IMG/VR virus record: IMGVR_UViG_3300025632_000002
From: an uncultured virus (IMG/VR IMGVR_UViG_3300025632_000002)
Lineage: Duplodnaviria > Heunggongvirae > Uroviricota > Caudoviricetes > Crassvirales
Length of the DNA stretch: 64,000 nt
Direction: 5' to 3' (one strand)
The translations under genes and the position numbers were made by a program. The notes under the pieces are model-generated. The model was not told where the DNA came from and did no database searches. It saw only the letters and a list, made by a program, of their open reading frames with translations. Shown piece after piece: positions 19,301 through 63,998 of the stretch (positions within the stretch are counted from its first letter, which is position 1; the number at the start of each line of letters is the position of its first letter).

Positions 19301-21145
19301 CTTACTCAAAATTTAAAAAGCGGTTTTATCGACAGCACTACAATGGAAGTGTTTTTGAATTCTACCTCTGAAGGAACTCAAAGCATTACGAACGCATCAA
19401 GCGCATATACAAGCCATTCAATAGGCGACTACGTTGCTGGAGGCTCGGTAAGTTTTCGAGGTACAATACAAGAAATCGTGTGGTATTCCAGCGACCAATC
19501 GAGCAACCGCACCGACATCGAGGATAACATCGGAGGCTACTATGACATCCCACTGGCTGGCTTGTTGGACGAGAATCCAGGAGCGGCTGCTGCTTATAGC
19601 TTGCGTAGACTAAGCTCTACGTACACAGGCAGTGCCATACAGGTACAGCGAGCTGACAACGTTGGTGGAACGACTGACATAGGCTTCGACTCTTACGGAG
19701 AGCTGGACACTATAGCTTTGACTACAGCGGCAGCTGGCAACGATATGGTTGTGGCTACTTGGTATGACCAGAGTGGTAACAGCAACGATGCTACACAGGG
19801 TACGTCTACTGCTCGCCCTAAGATTTACGACGGTACAACTGGCGTGGTGACGGAGAACGGGAAGCCTGCGTTAGATTTTGATGGGTCGAATGATTATTTC
19901 GAAATGCCCTCTCCATTTAGCGGAACAACACCGCGAAGCACTTTTTTCACAGGTTACAGTACAGAGAACCCCACTTCAGCCAGCGTAATTTATGGCGCGA
20001 ATGTACAGGCTACCAATTCAGGAGAGAGCTACAACATCACTACGGAAATCGGGTTAAGAGTTAATCAATATGCTTTGTGGGATGATGACTATCAAGGCAC
20101 TTCTAGGAAATTGTTAACTACAATATGGAGTTCTGGTAACGCTTTTGATGCTCAAATGTATTTAGACGGAGTACAATTATCGACTTCTAGCGGAAACTCT
20201 ACGGTTGACTTAAACACAGCCGCCCATAGTACCAGTTGGATTGCAAGGACTAGTTATAACCCAGACAATTATTTAACAGCGGTTTTTTCGGAAATGATTT
20301 TTTACGCTTCCGACCAATCCAGCAACCGAACAGACATCGAAGAAAACATCGGCGGCTACTATGACATCCCACTGGCTGGTCTCTTAGACGAGAATCCAGG
20401 AGCGGCTGCTGCTTACAGCTTGCGTCGCCTGAGCTCTACCTACACTGGCAGTGCTATACAGGTGCAGCGAGCTGACAACGTTGGTGGAACGACTGACATA
20501 GGCTTCGACTCTTACGGAGACTTAGACACTACGGCTTTGACTACAGCGGCAGCTGGCAACGATATGGTGGTGGCTACTTGGTATGACCAGAGTGGTAACA
20601 GCAACGATGCCTCTCAAGCTACATCCGCTAATCGTCCAAAGATTTATGACGGGAGTACGGGCGTGGTGACGGAGAACGGGAAGCCTGCTCTTGAAACAGA
20701 TGGCGCAAACGATTATTTGAGTTTTACTAGTATGACATTTAGTTCTAACTTTTGTTTTCTTAATGTTCAGACAACAAGCTTAAAGGATACAGGATATGGC
20801 GGGGCTGGTGGCAATTTCGGTGCCTACTTTGAAGATTCGACCACATTGCGTTGGCGTTTCTCTGGGTCTCAAAGTGACTACACTATCCCAAGCCAAACAA
20901 GCGGCACCCAATACCTTGCTTTTATCAACCGTGCCAGCTCTAGTGTGGAGCTACATTTTCAAGGTGTAAGCCGAGGAACAACAAGCAACGGAGGTACGTC
21001 TACGTTGTTTGATATTATGAGAGGCAATGCTGGGGGATTGTATTTAAATGGTCACAGTCAGGAATTGATTTTTTGGAACTCCGACCAATCCAGCAACCGC
21101 ACCGACATCGAGGACAACATCAACACGTTCTACAGCATCTACTAA
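13388..21145 (+). CDS. Large tail fibre/receptor-binding protein: PKD-like and DUF285/BspA-like repeats plus six LamG/ConA-like modules
   Basis: VDWGDG and QWGDG; many FNQ.L..WDVS..T.M..MF repeats; six AAYS(L/V)R(R/K)...WYDQSGN..DA.Q modules. Confidence 0.85.
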   Translation: MSGTIIGIANAFGASISPGAAQGSAPGPPPSQDPMNFYVTPYNSAGTSTPSGQYKLGLYSTGIYNFTVDWGDGNTDVITSYNQPEVTHDYGTVLPTDNFEITITPNSPIRQQAVNSWYFGNRNEGDGVKVRSIDQFGATLFYADQDIFYGCEVLSTFASTISNVPTILNKVIGDGFFFNCDELAPAFYTAYWVGPFTGTAESFNEGKSVAGLPVGNSRGKFQLDFTPTNMFRAFKNQAIFNQNDVGLYWDVSSCNNFTECFSSCLRYNQPFPNWTFLTGTPVFAADMFKNAVDFNQNITGWNTSAFQDMGGMFARTLPVGSGGVTDSVFNQAIGVWNTDNVRDASAMFFNAVNFNQDLSNWFSTGSLQNIGPSSGGIVSMFSGATSFNSSVANWDLTNPLLTSVSYVFNGATSFDQPLNSWDVSGVSFFVGTFNGATAFNQNLALWDVSSGLFFSEMFKGATSFVGTSLTSWNVSSATDMQDMFNGATSFTNSLVFWNPSSVTNMSGMFNGATLANPNVSGWNISSLANASDMFTNSGLSSFNYQALLVAWAAQAPNIQNGVTLSSINQYANFGAPADAKAKLVNDYGWTITDLVNPNLPPPALTFTIDTTATEVGSTANNQYRLPLISSGTYDFYVQWGDGDAEQITSWNQAEATHTYAAAGTYTVKMFAVAATTTPIIDHISWASQDGTTLSAANDRLKVQDISEWAAAILYLNEYVFTNCENLNITTTSSPTFGSKVLRTSAFENCDNLSGDLSGWGTVGSPITGLAGTFYKNSTSNPNFNFVLQHNVGSLIQPFQNCAAFNNPLNNWDVSSVIGFTAAFSGASAFNQDISGWDTGNSSAFNAMFSNALAFNQNISSWNVASVTTFSQMFQGATLFNQPVGAWTTTSLTNLFSTFKNAAAFDQDLANWDVSGVTTAVDMLTGSNISAANWDALLIGWAAQGTGAGSLQANVTLSNINQLHGSVDSAATAAYNKLTSAPYNWTIVDLGGVPVGNLLLDTSYGSGAEAAYSVRKLRTAYTGPAMKVQDTVGGATQDIYFDANNNLDEAAIISYGGSNDVFVETWYDQSINGNDATQGTSANRPKIYDGTTGALVKESGKVAIDFDGSNDNFDNSTVTLTSNDTLISVVSKIETTSTAVNIFDSSESNKFFLQIDASKNFQFSNGSGTNLNHKNDGFRYLTSLDFNGATLKSYFNGYNTKTATVSNQSRSGLRIGKHRESSAGWIDGTMQELIYWNQNKNANHTSIESNVGDYFTQNTPLLDTYTGAAAAYSLRKLSSSYSGSAIRVRRSSDNTEQDINFNVFGELDTVSLLDFAGAGDAFVKTWYSQTGSNDATQTATGSQPKIVSSGAVITENGKPAVQFDGSNDFVATSDFTAEAQPFYFSIVATPSATTLSRFIDTNGTDTNNRINITLSNGSIYEMNAGNSISGGTATTTQQLLTADFDTTNSFLYKDGVQIISGDAGTRNIDSVRIGANKNGIQSLNGTIQEVVFYNSDQSSNRTGIETNINTFYDIYTEPVAPLLLNNYPGAAAAYSLRRINSSYQGSAVLVQTALNTKGPVYIGFDSNNDLDTTSLATYGGSEDVVVAGWLDQSGNGNDASQATSANRPKIYDGTTGVVTENGKPALDFTNTVNLFLKNSSGQNLSISATDYSFIYVQKRASATGWIFDSQTGRFVISSGSPSGLFFDGAWKGSQQTTTAHEINYFDFVSPSSTNYYVNGSLNQGPLTYTQKAIGGLTAIGKEYSGSVPMNGTLQEFIIYTTPQTSYRTDIEENIGGYYDIPLAGLLDENPGAAAAYSLRRLSSTYTGSAIQVQRADNVGGTTDIGFDSYGELDTTALTTAAQGNDMVVATWYDQSGNSNDATQGTSANRPKIYDGTTGVVTENGKPAVDFGGGRLGLTSATSVTQTNMSLFAISKTSDVAQGFYNGFIFYARDNANSNYLILNANRDDRSISTLTKGISGSSNDLTFDNVANLTQNLKSGFIDSTTMEVFLNSTSEGTQSITNASSAYTSHSIGDYVAGGSVSFRGTIQEIVWYSSDQSSNRTDIEDNIGGYYDIPLAGLLDENPGAAAAYSLRRLSSTYTGSAIQVQRADNVGGTTDIGFDSYGELDTIALTTAAAGNDMVVATWYDQSGNSNDATQGTSTARPKIYDGTTGVVTENGKPALDFDGSNDYFEMPSPFSGTTPRSTFFTGYSTENPTSASVIYGANVQATNSGESYNITTEIGLRVNQYALWDDDYQGTSRKLLTTIWSSGNAFDAQMYLDGVQLSTSSGNSTVDLNTAAHSTSWIARTSYNPDNYLTAVFSEMIFYASDQSSNRTDIEENIGGYYDIPLAGLLDENPGAAAAYSLRRLSSTYTGSAIQVQRADNVGGTTDIGFDSYGDLDTTALTTAAAGNDMVVATWYDQSGNSNDASQATSANRPKIYDGSTGVVTENGKPALETDGANDYLSFTSMTFSSNFCFLNVQTTSLKDTGYGGAGGNFGAYFEDSTTLRWRFSGSQSDYTIPSQTSGTQYLAFINRASSSVELHFQGVSRGTTSNGGTSTLFDIMRGNAGGLYLNGHSQELIFWNSDQSSNRTDIEDNINTFYSIY
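18681..20688 (+). repeat. Three near-identical ~365-bp direct repeats in the tail fibre gene
   Basis: About 18681-19045, 19506-19870 and 20325-20688, separated by unrelated ~460-bp segments. Confidence 0.9.
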
Positions 21146-25887: not shown

Positions 25888-26109
25888 ATGCTTATTCGAA
25901 AAATCTCCATAGGGCCTGATTATAAATCGGGGATGCACTACTTATTAGGCCAGGAGGTTCTCGGTGGCAATTATAAAATACACCTCATCAAAATTGAGGA
26001 GAAATCAAATTCAATTCAAATATGGATAGAGCGCAATAACGAAATAATGCTTTGGAAACATTTTTCGTACACTATGCCGCTATCTGTAGAGTACAACATT
26101 AATTTTTAA
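25888..26109 (+). CDS. Conserved phage hypothetical (IRKISIG.DYK..MHY..GQ)
   Basis: 73-aa ORF, coupled to the next gene. Confidence 0.8.
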   Translation: MLIRKISIGPDYKSGMHYLLGQEVLGGNYKIHLIKIEEKSNSIQIWIERNNEIMLWKHFSYTMPLSVEYNINF

Positions 26110-26672
26110 TGAGGTCACCAGGCGCATTTATAGTAAAGCCAAAAAATAGCAGCAGATACGATAACAAACGAAGGGCCGACGACGTTGAGTTTATCGTAAG
26201 TTCGTCTCAAGAAGACCACAGGTTTTCTAACCGCTACGCTATCGTACAGTCCGTCCCACTTTCTTATTCAGGCCCTATAGAGCCAGGGGACACGCTTCTG
26301 GTGCATCATAACGTATTTAAATATTACTACGATATGTATGGGGCTCAAAAAAGCGGTCGCAGCTATTTTAAGGATGACCTCTTCTTTGTAACCGACGACC
26401 AGTTTTTTTTGTACAAAAAAGATGACAAGTGGCGAGCGCACGGAAAGTATTGCTTTGTAGAGCCTGTAGAAGAAAAAGAATCGTGGATAGGTAAGTTCTC
26501 AAAAGAAGAGCCCCTTATCGGAAGGCTTAAGTATGGAAATGACGAGCTCTTAGCGCTCGGTGTAAACGAAGGCGATGAGATATCGTTTCTTCCTGATAGC
26601 GAGTATGAGTTTACTGTAGATGGGGAAAAGTTGTACCGTATGTTTACTGACAACATAACGCTGGTATTATGA
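26109..26672 (+). CDS. Protein with probable tandem GroES-like folds
   Basis: Each half resembles Cpn10: IEPGDTLLV in the first, VNEGDEISF...EFTVDGEKLYRMFTDNITLVL in the second. Confidence 0.65.
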   Translation: MRSPGAFIVKPKNSSRYDNKRRADDVEFIVSSSQEDHRFSNRYAIVQSVPLSYSGPIEPGDTLLVHHNVFKYYYDMYGAQKSGRSYFKDDLFFVTDDQFFLYKKDDKWRAHGKYCFVEPVEEKESWIGKFSKEEPLIGRLKYGNDELLALGVNEGDEISFLPDSEYEFTVDGEKLYRMFTDNITLVL

Positions 26673-43261: not shown

Positions 43262-44200
43262 ATGGCATTTGTAACAGCAGCACTACAGTTAGCTTCGGCG
43301 GGCGTAAGTACGTACCAAGCCATTGAGGCTAACCGTCGTATTAAAGACGCTCAGAAAGCAGCTCAGAAGGCGACGCGTGAGGCGAAACGCCTCACCGAGA
43401 TTAACCCTATGCAGGAGCTTTCTGTCCCTACAGAAGCCTATATGCAGGCACGAGAGAGCCAGCAGCGATTGATGGCCCAACAGGTGCAGGCGGCACAGGA
43501 AGCTGACCCGAGGGGAGCGGCACGTAGCGCGGGAGTCGCTGTCGGAGGTAGCCTCGCTTTAGAAGACCAGTTACGGTCGGCTCAGGAAATGATGCAATAC
43601 AGAAGGGATATAGCTGTAAAGGGCCAGGACGTAGCTAATATAGATGCTCGGCGAGGCATCGCGGAGGCGGAGGCTTCTGGGTCTCAGCAAGCTGCTGCTG
43701 ACTCACAAGAAGCGATGGCTGAGGCTATCACCTCGGGGGCTGAGATGCTGGCTGGTGCGGGCGCTACGATTGATGCGGGAAGGGCGCTTTACAAGCAGAG
43801 CAGGGGAACTAAGATGATTGGAAAACAACTTCAGGGTGACGGTCGAGAGCAGTTCCTAGCGCAAACCACTCCTATTTTACAGCAACAGATGGTTGGTATG
43901 ACAGCTGGTCAACGTGAACAGTTCGCTCGGCAATATGGTCTTGACTTAGATGCTATGCAAACCGCTTTAGGAGACGGTGGTAACTTCGGTGATTTCTTTG
44001 GCTCACTTGGCGGCCTCACTCAGCAAGAGCTTCTTACTCAAGGGCTAACCATTGACCAGCTTAAAGCTTTTAATCGAGGAACTTTCCTTACTCCTCAATC
44101 CGCTGGTGTGGCTGGGGTAACAGGTAACGCTATGCCTTTTCAAAGTTCGTATAATCAATTTGATATTCGTCAACGTAACCCTGATTTGATACAGATATGA
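43262..44200 (+). CDS. Putative internal virion (ejection) protein
   Basis: Ala/Gln/Gly-rich and helical; first of three genes after the tail module. Confidence 0.6.
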   Translation: MAFVTAALQLASAGVSTYQAIEANRRIKDAQKAAQKATREAKRLTEINPMQELSVPTEAYMQARESQQRLMAQQVQAAQEADPRGAARSAGVAVGGSLALEDQLRSAQEMMQYRRDIAVKGQDVANIDARRGIAEAEASGSQQAAADSQEAMAEAITSGAEMLAGAGATIDAGRALYKQSRGTKMIGKQLQGDGREQFLAQTTPILQQQMVGMTAGQREQFARQYGLDLDAMQTALGDGGNFGDFFGSLGGLTQQELLTQGLTIDQLKAFNRGTFLTPQSAGVAGVTGNAMPFQSSYNQFDIRQRNPDLIQI

Positions 44201-45966
44201 GCTACTATAAGTACGCAAAGAGAGACGAGAAGAGCAGGGTAGACTGGGGTGCTATCACTACTAACCTTGTTGATACGCTCAGGGAGCAGGAGGCTGAACG
44301 CGAGAAACAACGTGAGGAGATTGATGCTTCGTCTCGGGCTACAGGAGATATCTTGTCCGATGCTCCGCAGGGGGAAAACAAAGCGGCCAATGAATGGATT
44401 CTAAACGCTTCGTCTGATGCCTCTCAGTACTTAATGTCTCAGAACCGACTGCTCAAGTCTGGTCTCCTTGACCCTAGAGACTTTACTGTCAATCGACAGA
44501 ACGTAGAGGATAGCTTCAAGGCTTTGCAAGACGTATCTAAAAATGCTCAACAGTATTACAAGGAGACAATGGACCGCATTGAGAACAATGAGTCTATCGT
44601 CGGTATGGAGGGGGCAGTACAGGAGCAGCTCAATAAGTTTCAGAACTGGTCTAAGACACAGGCGTTTGTAAATCCTACCAACGGAAAGATTAGCATAGGT
44701 ATGCTTAATGAAGATGGTGGTCTCTCTAAAAACGCTTCCGAGTTTAGCAGCATTGAAGGTATTACCAATCGTATGCGCTCTCGTTATGACAGGTATGATT
44801 ACTCACCAGACCTGCAAAGTTGGATAGACGGTGTGGGTAAAGACGTAAGGGTAGTTCGTAAAAAAGGTGTACTAACCCTTTCTGACGCTAGTCAAGACGC
44901 TGGATTCCAAACAGCGCTTGATGAGCAAGTGGGAGCTCTTGTTGATAGCAATCCCATTCGTGTTGTAAGTATACTAGAGGAGCTTGGACTTATCGATGGC
45001 TATGACATTGACGGGGAAAAGACTACGCAGGAAGGCGACAAGTTCAATGTAGCTATGAAGAATCAGAACGACGGCATTGTTATGCCAGAAGTCACTGATG
45101 ATATGAAAGCCAAGGCTCGTGAGTTCTTAAGTGGACAGATGCTTAATATGCTTGACAAGGAGCAGACACCTATGCCAGAGGACAGGGCCGCACAAGCCTT
45201 TAATAGGGTACGAAGTGCGGGTGCTAAAGATGACGCTGCTGTATTGGATGCGGTAGGGCTTTTGTACTCGGGTAGTAAAAATGATATTGACTCTGCCGTT
45301 AAGTCACTTGCTGGTTTGAACCCTAATATTCAAAGTATACAGCGAACTAATAGAGGAGTTACGGTTATTTACAAAAATGGCGACGCGTCAGACCTGCCGT
45401 TCTATAAAACAGATGGCGACGGAAACGTTATAGCAACTCCTGAGCTTTTGATAGACGGTAGAAACTGGACTACTGGCGCCGCTGGTTTAATTACTGGGAT
45501 TACAGAGAAGAATTACAATAAGATAGCTGAGGAATCTAGCTGGAATCCTATGTACGATGAATTTACCGTAGCTAAAGTTTTCGAGCCTTATGATGAATCG
45601 GAAGCAACGTTTGGCTTCTCCTATGGAACTACTGCTAAGGACCCGCTGAAAGCTGTTCAAGACATAAAGGCTGGCGTTACTGCTGAGCTCTTTGCGTCTG
45701 ATGACGAAGATACCGTAGCCAACAGTGTCAGTGAGGTGGTCAGCAAGTTAGGGTTTAATGTAGAGGGTGTTGGTGTTATTCGTGATGTGATAAAGGTTAC
45801 AAACCCCGTTACAGGGGAATCGGTAGAGATTAGAACTTCGGATAGCGAAACCGCTAAAAACAACTTATTGTCATTCATAAATAGCCAGGTAGCGACAGCA
45901 GAGGATATAATGAGAGTAAATTTGCAGTCAGGAGGAGCGGGAACTATAGACTACGGCAACCTATAA
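44197..45966 (+). CDS. Putative internal virion (ejection) protein
   Basis: 589-aa ORF; position. Confidence 0.6.
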   Translation: MSYYKYAKRDEKSRVDWGAITTNLVDTLREQEAEREKQREEIDASSRATGDILSDAPQGENKAANEWILNASSDASQYLMSQNRLLKSGLLDPRDFTVNRQNVEDSFKALQDVSKNAQQYYKETMDRIENNESIVGMEGAVQEQLNKFQNWSKTQAFVNPTNGKISIGMLNEDGGLSKNASEFSSIEGITNRMRSRYDRYDYSPDLQSWIDGVGKDVRVVRKKGVLTLSDASQDAGFQTALDEQVGALVDSNPIRVVSILEELGLIDGYDIDGEKTTQEGDKFNVAMKNQNDGIVMPEVTDDMKAKAREFLSGQMLNMLDKEQTPMPEDRAAQAFNRVRSAGAKDDAAVLDAVGLLYSGSKNDIDSAVKSLAGLNPNIQSIQRTNRGVTVIYKNGDASDLPFYKTDGDGNVIATPELLIDGRNWTTGAAGLITGITEKNYNKIAEESSWNPMYDEFTVAKVFEPYDESEATFGFSYGTTAKDPLKAVQDIKAGVTAELFASDDEDTVANSVSEVVSKLGFNVEGVGVIRDVIKVTNPVTGESVEIRTSDSETAKNNLLSFINSQVATAEDIMRVNLQSGGAGTIDYGNL

Positions 45967-45977
45967 TTAACTAAGAG

Positions 45978-48900
45978 ATGAACGAACAGGTAATTGACGA
46001 CTTATATGCGCGAGCCTTACAGAGTGGTTACAAGAAAGGACGTGCTGATTTCGTTCAATTGATACAATCAAATGAAGATGTATTCAATGATATGTATCAG
46101 TATGTTCAGTCTAAGGGATATGCTAAAGACGCTCAAAGTTTCTCCTCACTTGTAGGAAAGCGAACCGCCCCCACTGTAAAAAAAAAAGTTACGGCATCCG
46201 TATCGGAGCCTGGTTCTTTGGTCTCACCAGAGCCTGAAGTTCCTGTTGAGACAGCTATTGCCCCAGCGACTGAAGCTGCTGAACCAGCGACTACCCTAAC
46301 GGGAGCGGCTGACCCTGACTTTTTTGAGGAGCGTATGGAAATGATTTCGCCTCAACTTATCGACCGAGGCGATGAGGACGAAGTGGCTCAAGAGCTTACC
46401 GATGTGTTTAAGCCTTACGGATTTGAGGTTGAGCCCGCTGGTATAGGAGATGCTATAAAGGTAACCGCAGGCAATGGGAAGTCTATTGAGGTTGACCTTG
46501 ACCCATTTGAGATGCCTAAGATTCTAAGCCCCTTTGGCCTAGACTTCAATACCGAAACCGAGACCGCTGAAGCAAAAAAGCTACAAGACTTTTTAAGGGA
46601 AAACAGGCAGGAAGGATTAGACGCTCCCCGCAGGTTTGTAACCAATAAGCAACGAGACGATGAGGTAAAGCGCATTAATCAAAAGCAAAAAGAAATAAAC
46701 CGCTCCGCTCAAGACTACCTTAAAAGAAAACTAGAATTTCAAAATAAATACCCTCAGTTTTTAACCTATGACCCAGAGTATATAAAAAACAACCCCGAGG
46801 AGTACCAGAGGTTTTTGAATGATAGAGACAGCCTCGAAAAAGAACGAGAGTTTCTAGTTGAAATAGACCAAAAGGCAAAAGAAGAAGGGGCTCAGCTAGA
46901 TAGGCTAGCGGGAGAGTATACTGAGATGTTAGCCCAAAGAGGTTACTGGAGTGGAGGTGTGTTTAGAAATGAATTTATTCAAGGCATCGCTGAAATTGTG
47001 GCTGGCGCAAAGGACTTTGCTTTAGATACAGCCTACGACCCTAAGTTTCTTATGGAGACTGACCCCGAGTTCTTTAGGGATAACTACCTAAAAGAAGCTG
47101 CGGACAAGGGCTATGACGTTCCGTCTGCGTCTGATATGACGGTTGATGAATTTAAAGCTTGGATGAAAACCGACAAGGGTATCCCAGCAAAGGAAAGCAT
47201 AGCTATACAGACTAGTATAGTAGACACTAAGCTCAAGAGGCGCAAGCGCGGAGAACCAATTGATTACGAAGAAGCCTTAAACGCATACTCTCAATACGCT
47301 ACCTCTAAAAATATGGAGGTAACGGACGGCGAGCTTGCCGCTTTACGTCGCGGGCTTGACTTCTTGAAAGACCCCGAGTCTACTCCCGAAGCCGCAGACT
47401 TGATGTACGAGTCGTTTTGGGGCGGCGCTTTGTTAGGCGTTACTCGTTCGCTTCCAGCTATACTAGTCCCAGGTGGCTTTATTACTCGTACAGCGGCTAT
47501 GTACTCTCAAATAAGCAGCGCCTTAGAGCAAGAGATGGCTAAAGACCCTGACTTTCGGGATATATCTGAAGCTGAGAGGTTTCGATTGAAATTAGCTATT
47601 GGCTCTGCGTCTTCGGTTTTAGAATCCTTGGGTGTTAGGAATGTTCTAAAGCAAAAGGGGTTGCTTACAGGAATCCTTATGAAGGCTTTGAAAAAAACTC
47701 CTGCAAATGTCAAGGGTAAGGCTTTCAATGAAGTCGTTATGCGCGAAATTAATAGCGCTATTGGTCGAGGAGCGTTGGTTGTAACAAGCGCGGGCTTAGC
47801 TGAGTTTGAAACAGGGTTTTTGCAAGAGGGTGTAGACATCGGGTTTAAAAATGTCTACAACGAGATGAAGGGTAGAGATATGTTTGAAACCCCAGAAGGG
47901 GCTAGAGACATATTTGGTCGGATGCTTTATGCGGGAGCTCAAGAGGCTGTGGGTGGTTTTGTACTGGGAACTCCTGGGGCTATCAGCGCAGCGCGAAGGA
48001 GCTATGACTTTACGGCTGTCGATGACGCGACGTTTGAGATGTTTGAAAACGTAAGCTCCCAAACAGCTCGTGGCGAGCTGACTTACCGCCATATGTTTTA
48101 TACAAACCTCCAGGCTAGGATTAACCGAGGCGAGATAAGCAAGGCGGATGCACAGCAAGAGATGGACAACCTCGATGAGGTAATCGCCGTCAACCGAGAT
48201 ATCCCGTCCGACTTAACGGTAAGCCAGAAGAAGAAGGCTTTAGGGATATTACTTAGGAAGAAAGACTTACAGGAACAAATTGAAGGGAAAGACCCTATCC
48301 TTGTTAAACGCCAGCAAGAAGAACTGAACAGCCTTAACAGGGAACTAGACCAGATACTATACGGAACACCAGAAACAGATGCCATTCAAGAGCAAGGCCC
48401 AGAGAGCGTGGATGCACCAGAACCTACCAGAGATAGCGAAGCGGTGGGAGAAGGAGTACCCGACATCGGAGAACCTACCACAGAGGTTGAAGCCCAAGAC
48501 GACGTTACGGATGAAGCTCCAGCGCCGACGACGGAAGTCGCGGTAGACGAGGCGCCGACGGAGAAGCAACAAAAAGGATTGCAAAGGAGGATTGACAGGA
48601 GTAAAAAGGATTTTGCTGCCGCTACAAGTCTTGAAGAAAAAGCTAAAGCCCTTGTTAGGTACCTTAATAGCGTCTCTAACTCCAAGGGTATTGCAAGTGA
48701 AGAGGATGCGGCTTGGTACGAAGCGAATAAAGCTGAGCTAGAAGCTGAGGGATTTGTATTTGATGATATAGGTGATGAACTAGCTGATGGAAAGCCTGCT
48801 GACATCCGCAACGAAGAAACTAGCGATGCTGTTCCTAAAGGGAAAATAATTATAAAGGCTGTAGTCAAACCAGGGCGGGTGGTAGACGGGAAGGCAGTCA

Positions 48901-51900
48901 GCCGACCTACCTACGACGTAATTAGAGGAACAGGAACAACGGCTGCAAGGGATGCCTTAGTTGCTGAATTAAAGGCTTTGGAGGATGAACTAACTACAGA
49001 TAATTTTAATGAAATATCTCCTAAGCTAAAAGCCGCAAGAAAGGCTTTGAAGGATTACGATGATGCTAATTTCCCTTCATCTAAATCTGTTGCCGCCCCT
49101 AAGAAATCAGCCCCTAAGAAAACTGTGTCGGAGCCGACACAAGAGGTGACGGAGGAAGTCGCGGTAGAAGAAACCGTTCCCGTAGAGGTAGAACCTGTAA
49201 CCGCTCAAAGCGCGAGATATGCTCAGCTAATCGAGGACACCCCCGATAGTGTAGTTGAGCTGTTCGAGAATTGGACAAAGAGCCTTTTCTCCCCTGAAAT
49301 TGAAGCTATTGAAAATAAAGAACCATCTAACAGAACTCGCTCTGAAAGTGCTAAGCTTGCCGCTGTAACCCGTCGAATGAAGAAAGCTTTGGCAGCAGCA
49401 GAGGCGGCGGGTCTAGATAACTCAGCTCAGATAGAGTTGGAGAGGGCTGTTAGGGAGCGGCTTGAAACCCAAGAAGCTGCGGCTGTAGTAGCTGAAAATG
49501 TGTCGGAGCCGACACAAGAGGTGACCGAAGAAGAGCAGGTAGATATTGACGAGTTTTTTGGAGAACAAGACATAGAAGGCGTAGAGAAGGTCTCTGAGAA
49601 CCTCGTTATCAACCGCAAGCAAAAAGCTCCCACAGCTGACCCCAAGTCACAGCGGCGAATGAATCGAGTTCGTCAGATGTCGGTCAAGGCAGCGGCGTCC
49701 ATAAGGAAGATAGCTCCCGAAGTAAAAATCCTTATTCACGAAAGCCCTGAAGAATATCAGAGATTTGCAGGGGAGCAAACGGCAGGGAATTACAACCCCA
49801 AGACTAAAACGATTCATATCAACCTCGGCAAAGCGAATCTGTATACGGCGCCTCACGAAGTATTTCACGCTTTGCTTTTGCAAACCATAAGCACTGATTC
49901 CGAAGCTTTAACGGTTTCACGCAAGATGCTCGAGTCGGTACGTAAAGTTGTCGACCCCAATAGCCAAATGGCTAAGGACATAGATGAGTTCGTTGCTCGC
50001 TACGGAGACGCTCCTACCATACAGGACGAAGAGTACCTTGCGCAGCTAACGGGCATCCTTACTGCTGAATATCGTACGCTCAATAAGCCAGCAAAGAACG
50101 CCGTTAAGGATTTTTTACGAAAGCTGGCAAAGATGCTCGGGCTAGAGAAATACTTAGGCCCTGAGTTTCTGAAGACGGACGAGCAGGTCATCGACCTTTT
50201 GAATACCATCTCTCGGAGGATGTCTGAAGGAGAGTATATCGAGGCAGCTGACGTGCAGGCTATGGGTGATATCCTGTCTGAAGCTACTCCCGCTGAGCAG
50301 GCTCAAGCACAGCGTGAAGTTAGAGACTTCAAACGTAAGGAGAGGGAGAGGAAAGCCACTGAGGAAAACCTTTTAAATAGGAGTCAGGAATACGTTCAAG
50401 ACTTTGATGAGTTAGAAAGGCTCAACAATGAAGGCGTTATGTTTCACTTTGGCCCAGTCGATATCCAAGAAGTGATGCCTGAAAAACTTAGGCTAATGGT
50501 TTCAGGATATGGTATCTACTTTATAGACAAAGCCGAAAGCCCTACAACATATTCTTTGTACGCGAGTCGATATGGAAAAAGGGTTACCCTTGTTGATGGA
50601 AATGGTATGAATTTAGTTGACTCTGGCTCTAAGATTAGCAAAGAAGAGTTTACCACTCTTATGGACACTTTCAACAAAGAGGTTGCTGCTTTGGACGAGG
50701 TGAGCCCTGAGATAACCGAGTTGTCTGATTACTTAAACGAGTTAGACTTGGACCTCCAAGGAGCCAATCCTACTTGGTACGAGATGTTAACCACTATGTC
50801 TCCTGACTTACTGCCTTCTGATAGTGATTTCTTTTTGGGCGGAGTGATTGATAAAGCTTACAACTATACTAATCCTCAGAAGATGTTCATTGCTGAGGTA
50901 ACGGCTAAAGCTTTGGGGTATGACGGGGCTACAAGTATAATAGGTAAGGGTAGCATTGAAGAACACAGTGTCGTTAACGTATGGAACTTCGACAAGGTAA
51001 ATAAAAATATCATCTCTGACGAGGCAGTTACACCACGTATGCAGGTGGTTCCTCGCCAGCAGGTAGCTGATGCAGCTACATCTATACAGGAATCTCTGAA
51101 GTTTGCAGATAAGAGTTCATTCCCCAACAAGCTTGAGTTTAAGCGAGCTTTACAGGAGCGCTTTGATAACGAGGTGTACCCTCTCATTAAGGAGCGCTAT
51201 GGAGTAAAGGACAACCGCTCCAATACCGACCAAGGTCTCAAAGACTATCTCGTTGATGCGTATCTCAACGAGACGCTCACCGCTATCGAAGCGTATCCCG
51301 ACGCTTTGGGATGGTATGACGCTCGTATCACAGGTGCTATGTCGTTGATGGAGAAGCTGCACCCTGAGCTCGCTACCGATAAAGACGCTGCATCTACCTT
51401 TAAGATTGCATTGGCTATTACATCGAACGGAAACAAGGTATACGACAACTTCGTAGAAGCCAATCGTCAGTATGAATACTTTAAGGAAAACGGTAAGTTC
51501 GATGACACTTACTCTATTGGAGACCAGAGGGCGGGGATACTCTCTACACTAGCCTTTACCAACAAGGCGTTGGAGTCGATGTCTATGGCGGACTTCACAG
51601 CGTTTCTTACTACCAAATACAGGGCGGGCGATTTGAAGTATATGAAGGACGGCAAGAAGACCCCGCTCCTTCCAGGATTCGCTGTTGATGAAGAGGTTTA
51701 CGGAGCATCTATCTTTGGTCCTAAGATTGGTAATGGGTTCTTTATGAATCTATATGGCGAGTTCAACCAGCTCACTATGGATAGGTGGTTTATGCGTCAG
51801 TTCGGTCGATTGACGGGAACCCTCATTGATTATGACCAGAAGAAGGTAGACGCGGGAACCAAGCGTTTGAACCGAGCTATCAAAGCTTTGGCTAAACGCA

Positions 51901-54900
51901 ACGCTGCTAAGCTATCTGAGATGATTCCTGGATGGGATAAGATGTCCGCTGAAGAGCTGTCAAGTAAGATTCAGAAGGCTAGTATGGACCTCAAGAAGAG
52001 GGCTACCTTCAAGTCTAACCCTAAGCTCGACGAGGTACGTAAGGCTGGAAATAACTTGAGCAAGCAAGTAAGCGCTGAAGTTGAAGCTCCTCGTAACAGC
52101 TCACAGCGTAAGTTTATCAACGAGGTCTTTACTGAGTTGCAGGCTAAGCTCAAGAACGATTACGATATTGACATTACGATTGCAGATTTGCAGGCGGTAA
52201 ACTGGTATCCAGAGAAGGCTTTATATCAAACATTTAAAGCTGACCAAAGTACGAAGACAGGGAAAGTCGAGACCAGTGACAATGAGCAGCCCGACTATGA
52301 GAGTGCTGCCAAGAAATTAGTAGAAGAACAGGGCGTATCTAAAAAAGAAATTAAAGAAGATGAAGCAAGACGAAGTAAACAGCTTGAGCGAAACACCGCC
52401 AATCGAGAAGCTATCGAGCAAAGAGCAGGGGAGCTTAATAAAGATGATATCGAGGCTTCCGAAGTCAAGCGTCTCAAAGACAAAATAATATCCGTCAAAG
52501 AAGACGTCACTTCGTCGGGCCTTGAAGAAGGCGTAGCCCCTCGCCAGCAACTGAGTGATATCGCTACTCCGCTTCCGCGTCAGCAGAAGTCGGTACGTGA
52601 GGTGGTGCAGCAGGCGAGAGACAATAACTTCAAGGACGCAGCAACCAAAGACTTCCTCAAGCGCAAGGGTGTGCCAACAGCAGACATAGACAAGGCTATC
52701 AAGACCTTGGACGAGGTATACGCCCGAGTGATGAAGGAGATTGACGGCGTCATCACTAAGTCTCAGAAGCGCGGTGTCGACTTCGACACACAACTGAAGA
52801 ACGCGCTGGCTTACCTACAAGGCACTAAGCTCTACGAGGATACCACGGATATCCACAGAGAGAAGTTGATGCGTGAGGTACGCGCTAAATTCGATAAGAA
52901 AGAAAAGCGAGCACCGTCAGCGAAGCGTATCCTTGGAAACATTAAAGACGTCAAGAAGGTGACGCTAAAGGAGAAGGAGGCGCTCAAGATGCAGCTGAGG
53001 CTCGTAGCTAAGACCGCTAAAACCACAGCGAGAGCTTTGGTGGTAGCGAGCAATGAACTGACTAAGTCACTGAAGGAGATGGTCAAGGGTGGTGTCATCA
53101 CTGCCAATCAGATGAGCTCTGTCCTGCGTCGGTTCAGCCGAGTGGACCTGTTCAACCCCGCCAGCATCGATAGCTTCTTGGACTATATGGCTAAGATATT
53201 CGCCGATGCTGAGTACGGAGCGAAGATTGCTAGAATCAAGAAGCTGCTTCCTCGAGCCAAGAAGAATATAAAGTCTAAGATTGGCGTTGCCGACGTGCTC
53301 GGTGACACCCTCACTAAGCTCTTCAATGTCAACCCTACGTTGATACCGATGGAGATGCTTGAGGACTATCAAAATCTCCTTGAGATGATGGGTGCTGCGA
53401 AGAAGGTGCTCCCACTTGCAGACATCAACGATGTAACGGAGGTAGCTAATAAGCTGCTTAACGCGGTATACGAAGAGGTATCGATGGCCGAGGACTTGGC
53501 CGAGGTATTTGCGAACTACGAGAATAAAGTCATCAAGGACGGCAAGGTAGACTACGCAGCTACCGTTCGCGCTATGATAGCTGACGAGACCATATCAGAG
53601 GCGGAAGCCACTGTAATGATTAAGTACAAGTCCCGTATCGTAGAGTCTACCACGAAAGAACCTAAGACCGAGGAGGAGCTAGCCGAGGAAAGGGCTGAGC
53701 TTATGTCGGCGGTTGATGCGGCCAAGGTCAACGTCTCGCGTCTCGTTATGGACGAGGAACGAACCTTAGCTCGTCAGCTCGCCAAGCTGATGCGTACCGA
53801 GGCTATCGAGAGGCTCAGCAACCAGCAGCTAGAGACGCTGCTAGCCGTCATCGACAACATCAACAACGGCTTCGTAACCCACGCGGCCAATAGGTTGTAT
53901 GTAAATATGAACGCTTTAAACAATGATAATCAATTGGCAGACTCTTTACAGGAAGCTGACCCGTTATCTATATCAAAGTTTGTAGCCAAGATAAAAGGTG
54001 GCATTACTCAGAATAATAAATTCTTTGAAGCTATCAAGAGACGGCCATTGGCATATATAGATTCATTGTTCGGAGACTTCAAAACTAACCGTATATACAA
54101 CTCTGTATTTAGGCCATTGGCAAAAGCTTTTGACTCTATGAATGTAGAGATTCAAAGAATCGAGGAGCGGTTAGATAATGCAGAAAATGCAGTAAGAAAG
54201 TCTTTTAAACGCAATCCAAATAAAGTTCGCTTGTCATCGTACAAGAGGATGACGTATATGTTACAGCGTGAGTTTGAAGCTAATCCTGATAACGGACAGG
54301 TAAACCCAGCTGCTGACTTCATCCGAGCTACCATTGACCATATCAATGAAGGGAAGTCTTTCTTCAAGGGCAGAGACGCAGAGATGCTTCAGCAAATACT
54401 TGACGACTTCGGTGTAAGTGTTAAGGACGCGGACGGAAATGAAGTTATACAGATTGACTCTCAGAAGCTGTACGACTCATTCAATAAAGCAGAGCGCAAT
54501 GCGATTGTAGTAGCAGAAGACATAAACAAGTCTCTTGCAAGCAAAGCTTCATTTACAGCAGCAGTAATTCAAGGTAGAAGAGCCGATATATTAAACCAGT
54601 ACGCACACCATAACGTACTGAGTAGTAGCGAGCAAGCTGACAAGTCAACAAGTATATCAGAAATTCAGAAATACAACCAGTCACTTCGGGCCTCTACCAA
54701 AGCTAAGAATTCAATTGAGCGTACGGGAGCCGTAACTCCATTGAACTTTGATGTGTTAACGTCGGTGTCGCGAGGCGCTAAAATGATGCTAACAGACTTC
54801 TACCTTACAGACCCTGTACGCACATCACGAAAGACCATATCGAATACGCGTAAAGTTTTAGAGGAAAGGGGCAACGCAACAAAGCAGGACAAAGAAATAT

Positions 54901-56510
54901 TAAACGCAATTGACCAAGCCCTTGAACTTGCCCTTGACGACGTCTTAACCAAGACTTTCACGCAGGGAACTATGGTAGACAACATCATTCAGTACATATC
55001 GAAGACGGGCTACCGAGTAGTTTTGGCCTCAGTGAGTCGTTTTGGAGCGGAAGGGTTGAGTAATAGTGGATTTGTATCCTTGTTTGCTCCGAAACAAATG
55101 GCGTTGGGTTTGTCGAAAGAGAATATGAAACTGTCCATTGGTAGTGGGGGAACCGCAGTAGATATTCTGTCTGCTCTAGGTAGCACACAAATTTCTAGGT
55201 TATTTCCTGACCAGATGCTGTCTGGACGTATGATTGACACTTCAGTTCTTGGGGAAAAGTCTGGAGATAAAGGGGGTAGAGCTTATGGCGAGGTAGCCAA
55301 CAAGATGTTGCAGATATATAATGGAGTAGTAAAACCTGGGAAAGAGGGTGTCGAGAGGGTGGCTGATGGATTAATATCTACCCCAGATAAAGCCGTTATC
55401 CGACCGCTATGGTTTGGGTCTTTTGAATATAAGTTCGAGGAACTTACAAAGAAGAAACCAGATATGGACAAGATAGCCGCAAACGATGAGGCTTATATGG
55501 ATGCTAATCAAAAAGCCCTAGACGAAGCTACTGACTATGCGGACCAGATGACGACATTTGCTGGAGCCGCCGACAATCCATTCAAAGGTCTTCTTAAAGG
55601 CAAGTACCCGTCAAGCGTGAAGCAGTCGGCTATGCTTCAAGCGTTTAACATATCTAACAGCTTTATGACCCGCTTCTTGATATATGAATTTATATCAGCT
55701 CAAATAGGAACGTACGCTATGATGGGTAGGGGTATGATTTCTAAACGTCAAGGTGCGGCACTCCTCGGAGCCGTTACCACCCGTATGGTAGTGTATACTT
55801 TGTTAACCACTTTATTTGCTCAGATATTTAAGCAAGCGTTTGGATTGGGTGATGAGGAAGAAGAGAAAGACATAGAGAAGCAGTTCGGTCAGGCACTGGC
55901 CTCTACTGCCGTCAGCCTTATAGTAGGCCGAGACTTCGGTAACATAGTGAAGGGTCTCCTTAACTACGGGGTGGAGAACCTCAACGAAGAGTTCCTAGAC
56001 GAGCTACGTGACGGAGACTACGACCCGTACCGAGACGCTATCGCGTACACCTTTGTTCCGCCAGACAAGGAGTACAAGTCCAACACGCTAGCGGATTACA
56101 TACGTAACCTGATGGGTCCGTTCGGCCCCTTCTATAAGATGGCGGAGTTCGGTGTGAAGACGCTTAGCGCCGACGAGAAGAAAGACCCAGCGGCACGTAT
56201 ACGTCAGCAGCGAGAGCTCAATGAACGACTCCCGCTCGAGTTACTCGGAAACTTAGGATTGATTCCTCTGTACCGCGATATCAGGGCGCTCTTACTAGCC
56301 GATATCTACAAGGGTATGGGCAAGGAGAAGAAAGGAAGCAGTACAGGTATGACTAAGGCTGAAAAGGCTCAGATGAAGGAATACTTCCCTGAACTATACA
56401 AGATGCAGATGCAGATGGAAGAAGATATGAAGAACCCTGAGCTCGAGAAATTCGAAAAAGAGATGAAGCTACTTGAAAAGCAGCTTGAAGAATCCCTAAA
56501 GCAGCGCTGA
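45978..56510 (+). CDS. Giant polyvalent, probably ejected, virion protein (zincin peptidase, ART-like, HhH-glycosylase-like and GrpE-head-like domains)
   Basis: 3510 aa; APHEVFH; FHFG...GYGIYF...YASRYG...LGYDG; WYD...AITSNG...GPKIG..F.NL...TMDRW..R. Confidence 0.8.
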   Translation: MNEQVIDDLYARALQSGYKKGRADFVQLIQSNEDVFNDMYQYVQSKGYAKDAQSFSSLVGKRTAPTVKKKVTASVSEPGSLVSPEPEVPVETAIAPATEAAEPATTLTGAADPDFFEERMEMISPQLIDRGDEDEVAQELTDVFKPYGFEVEPAGIGDAIKVTAGNGKSIEVDLDPFEMPKILSPFGLDFNTETETAEAKKLQDFLRENRQEGLDAPRRFVTNKQRDDEVKRINQKQKEINRSAQDYLKRKLEFQNKYPQFLTYDPEYIKNNPEEYQRFLNDRDSLEKEREFLVEIDQKAKEEGAQLDRLAGEYTEMLAQRGYWSGGVFRNEFIQGIAEIVAGAKDFALDTAYDPKFLMETDPEFFRDNYLKEAADKGYDVPSASDMTVDEFKAWMKTDKGIPAKESIAIQTSIVDTKLKRRKRGEPIDYEEALNAYSQYATSKNMEVTDGELAALRRGLDFLKDPESTPEAADLMYESFWGGALLGVTRSLPAILVPGGFITRTAAMYSQISSALEQEMAKDPDFRDISEAERFRLKLAIGSASSVLESLGVRNVLKQKGLLTGILMKALKKTPANVKGKAFNEVVMREINSAIGRGALVVTSAGLAEFETGFLQEGVDIGFKNVYNEMKGRDMFETPEGARDIFGRMLYAGAQEAVGGFVLGTPGAISAARRSYDFTAVDDATFEMFENVSSQTARGELTYRHMFYTNLQARINRGEISKADAQQEMDNLDEVIAVNRDIPSDLTVSQKKKALGILLRKKDLQEQIEGKDPILVKRQQEELNSLNRELDQILYGTPETDAIQEQGPESVDAPEPTRDSEAVGEGVPDIGEPTTEVEAQDDVTDEAPAPTTEVAVDEAPTEKQQKGLQRRIDRSKKDFAAATSLEEKAKALVRYLNSVSNSKGIASEEDAAWYEANKAELEAEGFVFDDIGDELADGKPADIRNEETSDAVPKGKIIIKAVVKPGRVVDGKAVSRPTYDVIRGTGTTAARDALVAELKALEDELTTDNFNEISPKLKAARKALKDYDDANFPSSKSVAAPKKSAPKKTVSEPTQEVTEEVAVEETVPVEVEPVTAQSARYAQLIEDTPDSVVELFENWTKSLFSPEIEAIENKEPSNRTRSESAKLAAVTRRMKKALAAAEAAGLDNSAQIELERAVRERLETQEAAAVVAENVSEPTQEVTEEEQVDIDEFFGEQDIEGVEKVSENLVINRKQKAPTADPKSQRRMNRVRQMSVKAAASIRKIAPEVKILIHESPEEYQRFAGEQTAGNYNPKTKTIHINLGKANLYTAPHEVFHALLLQTISTDSEALTVSRKMLESVRKVVDPNSQMAKDIDEFVARYGDAPTIQDEEYLAQLTGILTAEYRTLNKPAKNAVKDFLRKLAKMLGLEKYLGPEFLKTDEQVIDLLNTISRRMSEGEYIEAADVQAMGDILSEATPAEQAQAQREVRDFKRKERERKATEENLLNRSQEYVQDFDELERLNNEGVMFHFGPVDIQEVMPEKLRLMVSGYGIYFIDKAESPTTYSLYASRYGKRVTLVDGNGMNLVDSGSKISKEEFTTLMDTFNKEVAALDEVSPEITELSDYLNELDLDLQGANPTWYEMLTTMSPDLLPSDSDFFLGGVIDKAYNYTNPQKMFIAEVTAKALGYDGATSIIGKGSIEEHSVVNVWNFDKVNKNIISDEAVTPRMQVVPRQQVADAATSIQESLKFADKSSFPNKLEFKRALQERFDNEVYPLIKERYGVKDNRSNTDQGLKDYLVDAYLNETLTAIEAYPDALGWYDARITGAMSLMEKLHPELATDKDAASTFKIALAITSNGNKVYDNFVEANRQYEYFKENGKFDDTYSIGDQRAGILSTLAFTNKALESMSMADFTAFLTTKYRAGDLKYMKDGKKTPLLPGFAVDEEVYGASIFGPKIGNGFFMNLYGEFNQLTMDRWFMRQFGRLTGTLIDYDQKKVDAGTKRLNRAIKALAKRNAAKLSEMIPGWDKMSAEELSSKIQKASMDLKKRATFKSNPKLDEVRKAGNNLSKQVSAEVEAPRNSSQRKFINEVFTELQAKLKNDYDIDITIADLQAVNWYPEKALYQTFKADQSTKTGKVETSDNEQPDYESAAKKLVEEQGVSKKEIKEDEARRSKQLERNTANREAIEQRAGELNKDDIEASEVKRLKDKIISVKEDVTSSGLEEGVAPRQQLSDIATPLPRQQKSVREVVQQARDNNFKDAATKDFLKRKGVPTADIDKAIKTLDEVYARVMKEIDGVITKSQKRGVDFDTQLKNALAYLQGTKLYEDTTDIHREKLMREVRAKFDKKEKRAPSAKRILGNIKDVKKVTLKEKEALKMQLRLVAKTAKTTARALVVASNELTKSLKEMVKGGVITANQMSSVLRRFSRVDLFNPASIDSFLDYMAKIFADAEYGAKIARIKKLLPRAKKNIKSKIGVADVLGDTLTKLFNVNPTLIPMEMLEDYQNLLEMMGAAKKVLPLADINDVTEVANKLLNAVYEEVSMAEDLAEVFANYENKVIKDGKVDYAATVRAMIADETISEAEATVMIKYKSRIVESTTKEPKTEEELAEERAELMSAVDAAKVNVSRLVMDEERTLARQLAKLMRTEAIERLSNQQLETLLAVIDNINNGFVTHAANRLYVNMNALNNDNQLADSLQEADPLSISKFVAKIKGGITQNNKFFEAIKRRPLAYIDSLFGDFKTNRIYNSVFRPLAKAFDSMNVEIQRIEERLDNAENAVRKSFKRNPNKVRLSSYKRMTYMLQREFEANPDNGQVNPAADFIRATIDHINEGKSFFKGRDAEMLQQILDDFGVSVKDADGNEVIQIDSQKLYDSFNKAERNAIVVAEDINKSLASKASFTAAVIQGRRADILNQYAHHNVLSSSEQADKSTSISEIQKYNQSLRASTKAKNSIERTGAVTPLNFDVLTSVSRGAKMMLTDFYLTDPVRTSRKTISNTRKVLEERGNATKQDKEILNAIDQALELALDDVLTKTFTQGTMVDNIIQYISKTGYRVVLASVSRFGAEGLSNSGFVSLFAPKQMALGLSKENMKLSIGSGGTAVDILSALGSTQISRLFPDQMLSGRMIDTSVLGEKSGDKGGRAYGEVANKMLQIYNGVVKPGKEGVERVADGLISTPDKAVIRPLWFGSFEYKFEELTKKKPDMDKIAANDEAYMDANQKALDEATDYADQMTTFAGAADNPFKGLLKGKYPSSVKQSAMLQAFNISNSFMTRFLIYEFISAQIGTYAMMGRGMISKRQGAALLGAVTTRMVVYTLLTTLFAQIFKQAFGLGDEEEEKDIEKQFGQALASTAVSLIVGRDFGNIVKGLLNYGVENLNEEFLDELRDGDYDPYRDAIAYTFVPPDKEYKSNTLADYIRNLMGPFGPFYKMAEFGVKTLSADEKKDPAARIRQQRELNERLPLELLGNLGLIPLYRDIRALLLADIYKGMGKEKKGSSTGMTKAEKAQMKEYFPELYKMQMQMEEDMKNPELEKFEKEMKLLEKQLEESLKQR
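48379..48546 (+). CDS. Nested out-of-frame small basic protein MPFKSKAQRAWMHQNLPEIAKRWEKEYP... (55 aa)
   Basis: Read manually in the +1 frame of the giant gene; resembles small phage proteins of the MPFKS.KQR.WM....PE.A.RW type. Confidence 0.7.
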   Translation: MPFKSKAQRAWMHQNLPEIAKRWEKEYPTSENLPQRLKPKTTLRMKLQRRRRKSR

Positions 56511-62665: not shown

Positions 62666-63424
62666 TTATAGTGTCTCTCTGATGATATACGACTCTAAAT
62701 TGTCAGTGGCATTTTCTCCGAAGAACTGCTCGTATACCTTTAGTGCTCGCTCGACCTTCTCCTCACCACCACGCACGAAGGCTTCGCTAGGCTCATAGAT
62801 ACCTACCTGTGCGCTCTTCTTGTCGATGGCATAGAACACCAATGGCTTACCGAATATATTCTGGTATATATAGCACTGGCTGTCGTAGTTGTATTTCTTC
62901 GCTGAGAAGCGGAACTCCTTGATGTTGCTCGTGGTCTTTAGGTCGATGATGCAATCCTTGGATATGATGTCGGCTTTCCCTTTCCACCATACGCCATTAA
63001 ACTGCTTCACGCCTGGCACCTCGAAGACGTTTTCATTCAAGTAAATCTGCTGGTACAGCTCGAAGTTCGTCATCATAACGTTGACCAAGTAGTCCATCTC
63101 TTGCTTCTCTTTCTCAAGAAGCAAGACCTCTTTGCCGCTGTCTTCAATTGCCCTCTTGTACACGTTAGTATTGCGAGAGTAACTATCTACGAACTGCCAA
63201 TCCTTGACCTTCTCAGGCTCGAGAATCGATTGGTGGAAGTACCTACCCTTGGCGAACGCTTGGTTGTCAGGTCGGCTGATGCGGAACTCACGCGGGTTAC
63301 TCAGCAGAGAGCCTACGTCTGAGTTCGATATGAACTTCTTACCGAAATCGCCATAGTAGTCGTTGTCGTCACGTAGACGTTCAATAGCCTTAGCTACCTG
63401 TTCCTTCGTGAGCTTACTCAGCAT
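62666..63424 (-). CDS. PD-(D/E)xK exonuclease (RecE/DUF3799-like)
   Basis: ISNS, G.YFH..ILEP, KGKAD, IIDLKTT and Y.YDSQ..IY motifs. Confidence 0.85.
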   Translation of the reverse strand: MLSKLTKEQVAKAIERLRDDNDYYGDFGKKFISNSDVGSLLSNPREFRISRPDNQAFAKGRYFHQSILEPEKVKDWQFVDSYSRNTNVYKRAIEDSGKEVLLLEKEKQEMDYLVNVMMTNFELYQQIYLNENVFEVPGVKQFNGVWWKGKADIISKDCIIDLKTTSNIKEFRFSAKKYNYDSQCYIYQNIFGKPLVFYAIDKKSAQVGIYEPSEAFVRGGEEKVERALKVYEQFFGENATDNLESYIIRETL

Positions 63425-63998
63425 CTGCTATGGCCTTCTTAAAAGATTTCTTCACTGAGGCCGTGACCTTGTACTTAGAACCAATCTCTTCGACGAGGGC
63501 TTCTAAACCCTTGGCTTTGTTTTTTACGATATACTTTAGAACCTTGTCCCAGTTCTCATCGTCTACGTCAAGCTTCAAAAGCTTCTTTTCCTTTGGAGCT
63601 TCTTCTTGTGTCGGCTCCGACACACTTTCTTCGCCCGTCCATAAGCTTAATCCCAAACCGTGAAGCGCAATCGCCTTGACTGTAGAGCGCATAATGGTGT
63701 CGTTGATATCGCGAGAAGTGACCTTTTCGATATTGATGGAGTTATTGCGGTTGTCCATCACAGGCAAGTAGTCGATATGTTCGAGACCGTTAACTATCAA
63801 GCCTACCTTTACATAAGCAGTAACGCCATCGGTAAAATAGTTTAGACCCGTGTGCTCGCTTTCGTAAACTATGCGCTGTGCGCTAGGATAATGCGTTTTA
63901 AGGATATGCCACGCGTGTGACCAAGGTAGGTAGTTAAGGTGTCCTTTCTTTTTTACCTTCTCTTTTACGCTTATTGCGCTGAGAGTTTTGTATGAATT
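63414..63998 (-). CDS. Single-strand annealing protein (Sak3/DUF1071-like), 5'-truncated by window edge
   Basis: Frame stays open to the window end: YKTLSAISV..KV.KKGHLNYLPWSHAW...LPVMD.RN...R..VKAIALHGLGL. Confidence 0.85.
   Translation of the reverse strand, partial: NSYKTLSAISVKEKVKKKGHLNYLPWSHAWHILKTHYPSAQRIVYESEHTGLNYFTDGVTAYVKVGLIVNGLEHIDYLPVMDNRNNSINIEKVTSRDINDTIMRSTVKAIALHGLGLSLWTGEESVSEPTQEEAPKEKKLLKLDVDDENWDKVLKYIVKNKAKGLEALVEEIGSKYKVTASVKKSFKKAIADAE

Follow-up and report, generated by a model that had tools for sequence, protein, structure and literature searches.

R-x-Q motifs bound an exchangeable enzyme array in a giant polyvalent-type protein of an uncultured phage and may mark its cut sites

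In polymorphic toxin cassettes and in integrons, effector domains are exchanged through recombination at a common sequence. Polyvalent proteins were defined by Iyer, Burroughs, Anand, de Souza and Aravind in 2017 (PMC5512222), and the main text of that paper predicts their autoproteolytic release. We describe here a protein of this type in a 64,000-nucleotide stretch of DNA (the window) from an uncultured virus (IMG/VR IMGVR_UViG_3300025632_000002), encoded by an open reading frame (ORF) of 3510 amino acids (aa) in which enzyme domains are bounded by the motif R-x-Q. The locus and its relatives share with the polyvalent proteins of the PMC5512222 main text a giant late-gene protein, a zincin peptidase, ADP-ribosyltransferases (ARTs) with a His-Tyr-Asp triad, and GNAT and LPD23 domains. 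Among cultured phages, the structural protein of Elemovirus (YP_010108907.1; phages of Flavobacterium sp. BAL314) has the same gene position and a homologous peptidase (36%). The cassette array is well established by comparison with close relatives, and the reading of the motif as a cut site of the resident peptidase is probable.

Cassettes are exchanged at R-x-Q among close relatives

The original prediction for this DNA, made from its letters, proposed a polyvalent protein, and the ORF has that character: a large multidomain chain, encoded among late virion genes, that joins unrelated enzymes and a zincin peptidase. An N-terminal part, the peptidase, an ART-like cassette, a cassette with the HhH-GPD fold (HhH, helix-hairpin-helix) and a constant C-terminal part follow one another in this order:

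45978..56510, + strand: polyvalent-type protein, 3510 aa; PHROG 32588 at its C-terminus; last gene of the virion cluster
49671..50255, + strand: zincin-like metallopeptidase, aa 1232-1426; HEVFH at 49854-49868, conserved Glu-Glu at 50028-50033
50379..50387, + strand: boundary motif 1 (RSQ), beyond the post-peptidase linker
50379..51035, + strand: cassette T6, ART-like, 219 aa, about 24.5 kDa; His1490-Tyr1514-Asp1649 pattern
51033..51062, + strand: PRMQ-VV-PRQQ scar; 18 extra nucleotides (nt) at 51036-51053
51054..52541, + strand: cassette T8, HhH-GPD glycosylase fold by model, 496 aa, about 56 kDa; core about 51237-52238
52530..52550, + strand: junction G-V-A-P-R-Q-Q, a near-constant DNA joint common to most cassette ends
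52539..52586, + strand: fixed double motif (PRQQ, 8 residues, PRQQ) at the start of the constant part; final array element in close relatives
52578..56510, + strand: constant C-terminal region, about 147 kDa; 107 homologues

Every motif singled out by the original prediction lies in the single frame of this ORF: besides HEVFH these are NRSQ (50376-50387), FHFG (50442), GYGIYF (50505), YASRYG (50559), LGYDG (50913), PRMQ (51033), PRQQ (51051, 52539 and 52575), TMDRW..R (51774) and QA..W (52191). The element given as GPKIG..F.NL is present, with its spacing corrected to GPKIG..FF.NL. The sequence CCTCGCCAGCA has two exact copies, at 51051 and 52539 as had been noticed; the repeat alone is weak evidence, because repeated 11-mers are common by chance (about 500 chance pairs expected in 64 kb by an arithmetic estimate), and its weight comes from the relatives. 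Across all 3510 aa, plain R.Q stays at chance level (8 against 8.0 expected), and PR.Q occurs four times against 0.29 expected, all four inside 51033-52586, with none in 15 other + strand ORFs (10,553 aa). The boundary role proposed for PRxQ stands, and its form is better written R-x-Q/S, the Pro being specific to the window's lineage. Pfam gave no relevant match on segments of the window, nor did the C-terminal region match named phages; membrane helices are not claimed, as no segment exceeded 1.6 in a Kyte-Doolittle scan.

With the constant C-terminal part as query, we found 107 proteins among 2424 candidates, including 15 close relatives (79-99%) whose middles differ. We split 33 arrays (17 proteins and 16 loci, the sets overlapping) at R[QMSKE]Q, a rule picked after the data had been seen, with four contexts left out by hand. 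The resulting 18 cassette clusters became 16 types on merging one spurious split (T14 and T15 proved to be one variant of T12, divided by the cutting rule). The 25 complete arrays, some of them duplicates, present 15 architectures. Eight types are ART-like (three pass Pfam), three have no family, one is LPD23 with a second HExxH, one is GNAT-like, and the others are T1, T8 and T10, exactly one of which is present in each array (25/25). Copies of T1, T7, T8, T9 and T10 are 96-99% identical across different arrays, and both orders are seen for T2/T3, T2/T5 and T2/T7; a reversal of T10/T13 was dropped when its second case turned out to be another type, T17. T7 (L013 5114-5851), T5 (L009 2496-2930) and T18 (L013 4730-5113), which match no Pfam family, could by eye be further ART variants.

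The edges of shared DNA coincide with the motif. Measured from the motif Arg codon, identity between arrays ends at -7 to +15 nt in 31 of 32 comparisons and begins at -25 to +5 nt in 33 of 34, in a scan that started 30 nt from the motif and whose two outliers both involve T12 variants; unseeded BLAST segments likewise terminate at motifs. To judge from sequence, the PRMQ-VV-PRQQ scar of the window is an imprecise remnant of a lost ART-PolyVal cassette, T9, which starts RMQVV and lies between T6 and T8 in P0012, P0013 and L010. The precise T6-T8 form is found in P0009 and in one contig of run X10, and P0010 has a different scar. Single samples contain differing array forms: at the level of contigs, run X10 has both the scar and the precise form, and run X15 shows T6-insert-T8 in one contig, T1 joined by its end at 52527, and T4 ending imprecisely at 50343. 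Near-identical phages have thus acquired, lost, replaced and rearranged cassettes through crossovers in or beside the R-x-Q codons, and the domain content between motifs changes in relatives as the proposal of recombination boundaries anticipated.

Variation within this gene has other features as well. Among close relatives, synonymous divergence is 0.06-0.25 at 52575-53900 and 0.3-0.5 over much of the rest; the low values to the right of the array fit recombination homogenising its right flank. The N-terminal part (45978-49600, and L032 2348-5350) is also variable among close relatives, and elemoD and elemoA differ only within about aa 130-1000; this is a second variable zone, one without R-x-Q bounds. 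A very basic 55-aa ORF with an ATG start, at 48379-48546 (+) in a second frame, is the sole alternative + frame ORF of at least 45 aa in the giant gene.

R-x-Q as a probable protein-level signal

The zincin peptidase of the original prediction is borne out by alignment, in which the HExxH motif is accompanied by a downstream Glu pair: both His, the Glu between them and both downstream Glu are unchanged in 13/13 aligned sequences, and HExxH is present in 148 of 150 homologues, the remaining two being fragments. Matches in the PDB are weak (IrrE, E 0.17), and the Pfam MPTase model gives none.

A library at 50% identity yielded 560 peptidase homologues, of which 150 were listed and 144 testable. 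Among these, R.Q is found in the first 60 aa beyond the peptidase in 81/144; shuffling gives 19.4 +/- 3.7 (maximum 30), and an upstream control gives 13/137. R.Q is the top gapped pair after the peptidase (z 17), with K, Q, E or F as the middle residue, and it is enriched only in the cargo zone (3.8x, 2.2x and 1.4x; elsewhere 0.75-1.2x). Distant relatives of the cassettes open at R.[QS] in 23 of 25 de-duplicated sites, and in the AlphaFold model of T8 the motif ends fall in low-confidence, probably unstructured parts. The Elemovirus protein has RFQ at 1683, RQQ at 2079 and RMQ at 2302, in AT-rich codons and with no shared DNA repeat. R-x-Q is probably both a DNA joint and a protein-level signal: the homogenised junction DNA of the window's lineage suits recombination, and distant kin and Elemovirus keep the motif, the latter without a DNA repeat.

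The motif also appears to follow the type of peptidase. We grouped 27 clusters of C-terminal homologues into 11 with the window's peptidase type, 8 with other HExxH types and 8 without a peptidase. R.Q occurs 23 times against 11.4 expected in the first group, RF[SEQ] 4 times against 0.3 in the second, and in the peptidase-less clusters R.Q shows no excess (13 against 13.8). A second peptidase type precedes PRFS, PRFE or RMS instead of R-x-Q, and, by eye, L/F-x-Q bounds a T8-like cassette in three podophages that are unrelated and have a different peptidase.

We favour, with moderate confidence, the reading that R-x-Q is the cut site of the resident peptidase and doubles as the recombination joint. 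The gene product would be an internal virion polyprotein in which the variable enzyme array stands between N-terminal part and peptidase on one side and the constant C-terminal part on the other. The common start peptide of the cassettes would impose about 15-25 nt of in-frame microhomology on the codons. During co-infection this could serve the exonuclease and the Sak-like annealase of the phage, making a site-specific recombinase unnecessary. The peptidase would cut at R-x-Q while the protein is still inside the capsid or shortly after it is ejected, and free the cassettes as separate enzymes (about 24.5 and 56 kDa) that would work before phage gene expression; the ART would ADP-ribosylate a host protein or nucleic acid, and we infer an anti-host role for the cargo. 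A broader proposal, which we offer tentatively, is that every clade of polyvalent peptidases has a three-residue code of its own (R-x-Q, R-F-S, L/F-x-Q), at once cut site and in-frame recombination joint, the gene being a reshufflable magazine of injected enzymes that includes an undescribed virion-delivered HhH-GPD glycosylase acting on host or modified DNA.

Several observations weigh against the cut-site reading. P0083 keeps PRFE and has no HExxH, L002 has R-A-K instead, P0021 and P0082 have no R.Q in the cargo zone, and 38 of the 144 testable homologues do not have even R.[QS] in the 60 aa that follow the peptidase. R-x-Q also lies inside cassettes (T3 position 18; RAQ at 2223 in Elemovirus), and no swapped cassette is seen among the six species of Elemovirus. 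Without the window's lineage, the excess in the 11 clusters falls to 14 against 8.5 expected, so that the co-variation of peptidase and motif is carried by few clusters; the homologue counts share ancestry and are not independent, and the statistics carry no tree correction. Junction DNA in the window's lineage shows more uniformity than would be required to encode the peptide (Ala is GCC in 27/39, against 17% in the gene). Finally, the main text of PMC5512222 describes N4 virion RNAP, ArdC and TraC1 as packaged or transferred uncut.

The motif could instead be read as protein by another agent, either a host protease or a docking, packing or ejection signal, with the peptidase directed at peptidoglycan or host proteins. 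A phi24B preprint (10.64898/2026.04.10.717836) assigns peptidoglycan degradation to the metallopeptidase of its polyvalent ejection protein, the main text of PMC5512222 permits host targets, and P0083 retains its motif in the absence of HExxH; however, the motif seems to vary with peptidase type, shows no enrichment where the peptidase is missing, and stands directly after the peptidase linker and directly before the constant part, and we regard this explanation as rather unlikely. Less likely again is that the motif is a DNA recombination joint only, or a duplication relic, with the domains acting tethered in one chain: most junctions in the window's lineage do have a near-constant DNA core, and crossovers land there, but verified junctions use five different Arg codons, distant kin keep R and Q while varying the middle residue, and Elemovirus has the motif with neither DNA repeat nor swaps. 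Movement of cassettes by an integron-like enzyme, a site-specific recombinase with the junction sequence as its substrate, would accommodate the order reversals, single-cassette gains and uniform junction core, but it is very improbable given imprecise scars in the window, in P0010 and in X15 at 50343, and a window with a Sak-like annealase and no integrase in the 39 ORFs scanned (small ORFs in part, in a window that may be less than the whole genome); neither a site-specific integrase nor uniformly precise junctions were found.

The enzymes of the array

The predicted ART-like domain is supported by profile and pattern. A profile of the other ART cassettes, with T6 left out, scores T6 at E 7e-11, and H1490, Y1514 and D1649 align with the sister cassettes that pass Pfam and correspond to the His-Tyr-Asp triad given for polyvalent ARTs in the main text of PMC5512222. 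T6 itself does not reach the gathering score of ART-PolyVal (PF18760), which its sisters T9, T13 and T17 pass, and a profile from those three alone does not recover it. The Atlas score for T6 as an ART is 0.94, with low recognition, and a tankyrase match (E 0.008) comes from a profile that includes T6 itself. Its single-sequence AlphaFold model, with a predicted local distance difference test score (pLDDT) of 32, was not used for fold. Of 410 candidates with lengths of 120-384 aa, one fragment was a stand-alone relative. Virion ARTs are treated in PMC9503650.

T8 had been proposed as an HhH-glycosylase-like domain, and its AlphaFold model (pLDDT 84) supports a glycosylase-type fold. In a VIA search of 48,161 chains with this model, ranks 1-22 were all glycosylase-type folds and the next unrelated chain had Z 6.1; the best match was Tm1821 (3n0u; Z 10.9, which is under VIA's caution level for helical proteins, root-mean-square deviation 4.3, 194 residues aligned). 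Foldseek of the model against the PDB, a T8 profile against PDB sequences, and Pfam all returned nothing. T8 is 7-13% identical to its structural matches and has a large helical insert. Lys1916 and Asp1935 are nearly invariant, being kept by 90% or more of the sequences in the alignment, and may sit where EndoIII chemistry expects its catalytic Lys and Asp. All 14 T8-like matches in BFVD lie inside large phage proteins.

The chemistry of T8 is not fixed by its fold, because the fold set also holds non-glycosylase derivatives (PaMx11 gp46 and the queuine salvage enzyme, DUF2419). Base excision that targets the DNA of the host or of a competitor is the modestly favoured role; repair of the incoming phage genome seems unlikely, and some other base chemistry, like that of PaMx11 gp46, more unlikely still. 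T1 passes Pfam as DUF7178 (PF23802) and T8 does not; Atlas links T8 to DUF7178 clusters. Kinship of T1 and T8 is unsupported by hidden Markov models (profile-profile probability 0.4%), and T1 is a slot-mate only. Nor is a glycosylase slot essential across the family, as either type is present in only 12 of 117 distant full-length proteins.

Genome setting and comparison with known systems

Matches to the terminase comprise 89 named phage records (68 Flavobacterium, 15 Cellulophaga, 2 Tenacibaculum, 1 Maribacter and 3 others), Elemovirus being the top cultured one at 43.6% identity. Fourteen sequencing runs hold at least half of the window's words, 13 marine and 1 sponge metagenome, with 8 flagged as possible sources. 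The window would thus derive from a marine podophage infecting Bacteroidota. The 3510-aa ORF closes a virion gene cluster that includes terminase, portal, tail genes and a crAss-muzzle-like gene; from this position, its product is a probable internal (ejected) virion protein. Other genes with a bearing on the array are:

43262..45966, + strand: two genes upstream of the giant gene, 312 and 589 aa; PHROG 13764 (virion structural, E 2e-4) and PHROG 35506
62666..63800, - strand: genes for an exonuclease VIII-like protein and a Sak-like single-strand annealing protein; candidate machinery for recombination, with a presumed role in cassette exchange

The layout of 312-aa, 589-aa and giant genes is matched in Elemovirus, and by position the two smaller genes probably encode smaller internal virion proteins. 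Elsewhere in the window are a phage GroEL (8283-9908), a distant GroES-like gene (26109-26672), a second zinc peptidase of the M43 (pappalysin-like) type with a hydrophobic N-terminus (7198-8250), and a 2585-aa protein that combines DUF285 repeats with laminin G and arabinofuranosidase-B-like domains and probably serves in the tail or in adhesion (13388-21145).

Splitting of polyvalent proteins by their own peptidase has been proposed since 2017, and we found no named cut site in print; R-x-Q supplies a specific candidate, with sizes predicted for the fragments, and a phage and host in culture allow it to be tested. The lineage of uncultured marine phages described here varies its early effector load, with 2 to 6 cassettes per near-identical phage out of 16 or more available types. 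Dividing sequences at the motif gives clean domain boundaries for finding counter-defence enzymes, including the glycosylase-fold family, and a clade-specific code, if true, would make the processing maps of thousands of phage polyproteins readable from sequence.

In the literature searched, mostly non-subscription, we found no description of the R-x-Q motif, the cassette array, a glycosylase cargo or DUF7178; PMC12002296 and PMC8776804 added nothing decisive, and an A4 cyanophage paper deals with an M23 peptidase and has no bearing here. Limnohabitans phage DC33 (L024, PQ492659.1; 39 kb) also has a giant polyvalent protein, in a record filed under Inoviridae, which looks wrong. The main text of PMC5512222 suggests cassette-like recombination for a Verrucomicrobium locus, which is shared with the present array; that text, to which supplements may add such domains, has no cut-site motif, in-gene array or HhH-GPD cargo, and 'glycosylase', 'linker', 'shuffl' and 'helix-hairpin' occur in it 0 times. 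The HhH-GPD DNA glycosylases (Tm1821 OGG 3n0u, NTHL1, MagIII, EndoIII) share their fold with T8 and differ from it in the low identity, the helical insert and the lack of any Pfam or PDB sequence match. The Elemovirus protein likewise has R-x-Q ahead of each cargo and of the constant part, but its cargo is different and its records say only 'structural protein'. Unlike polymorphic toxin cassette systems and integrons, the window has no immunity genes or orphan cassettes, and no integrase was found among the ORFs scanned; here a single protein carries several cassettes in frame within its middle part.

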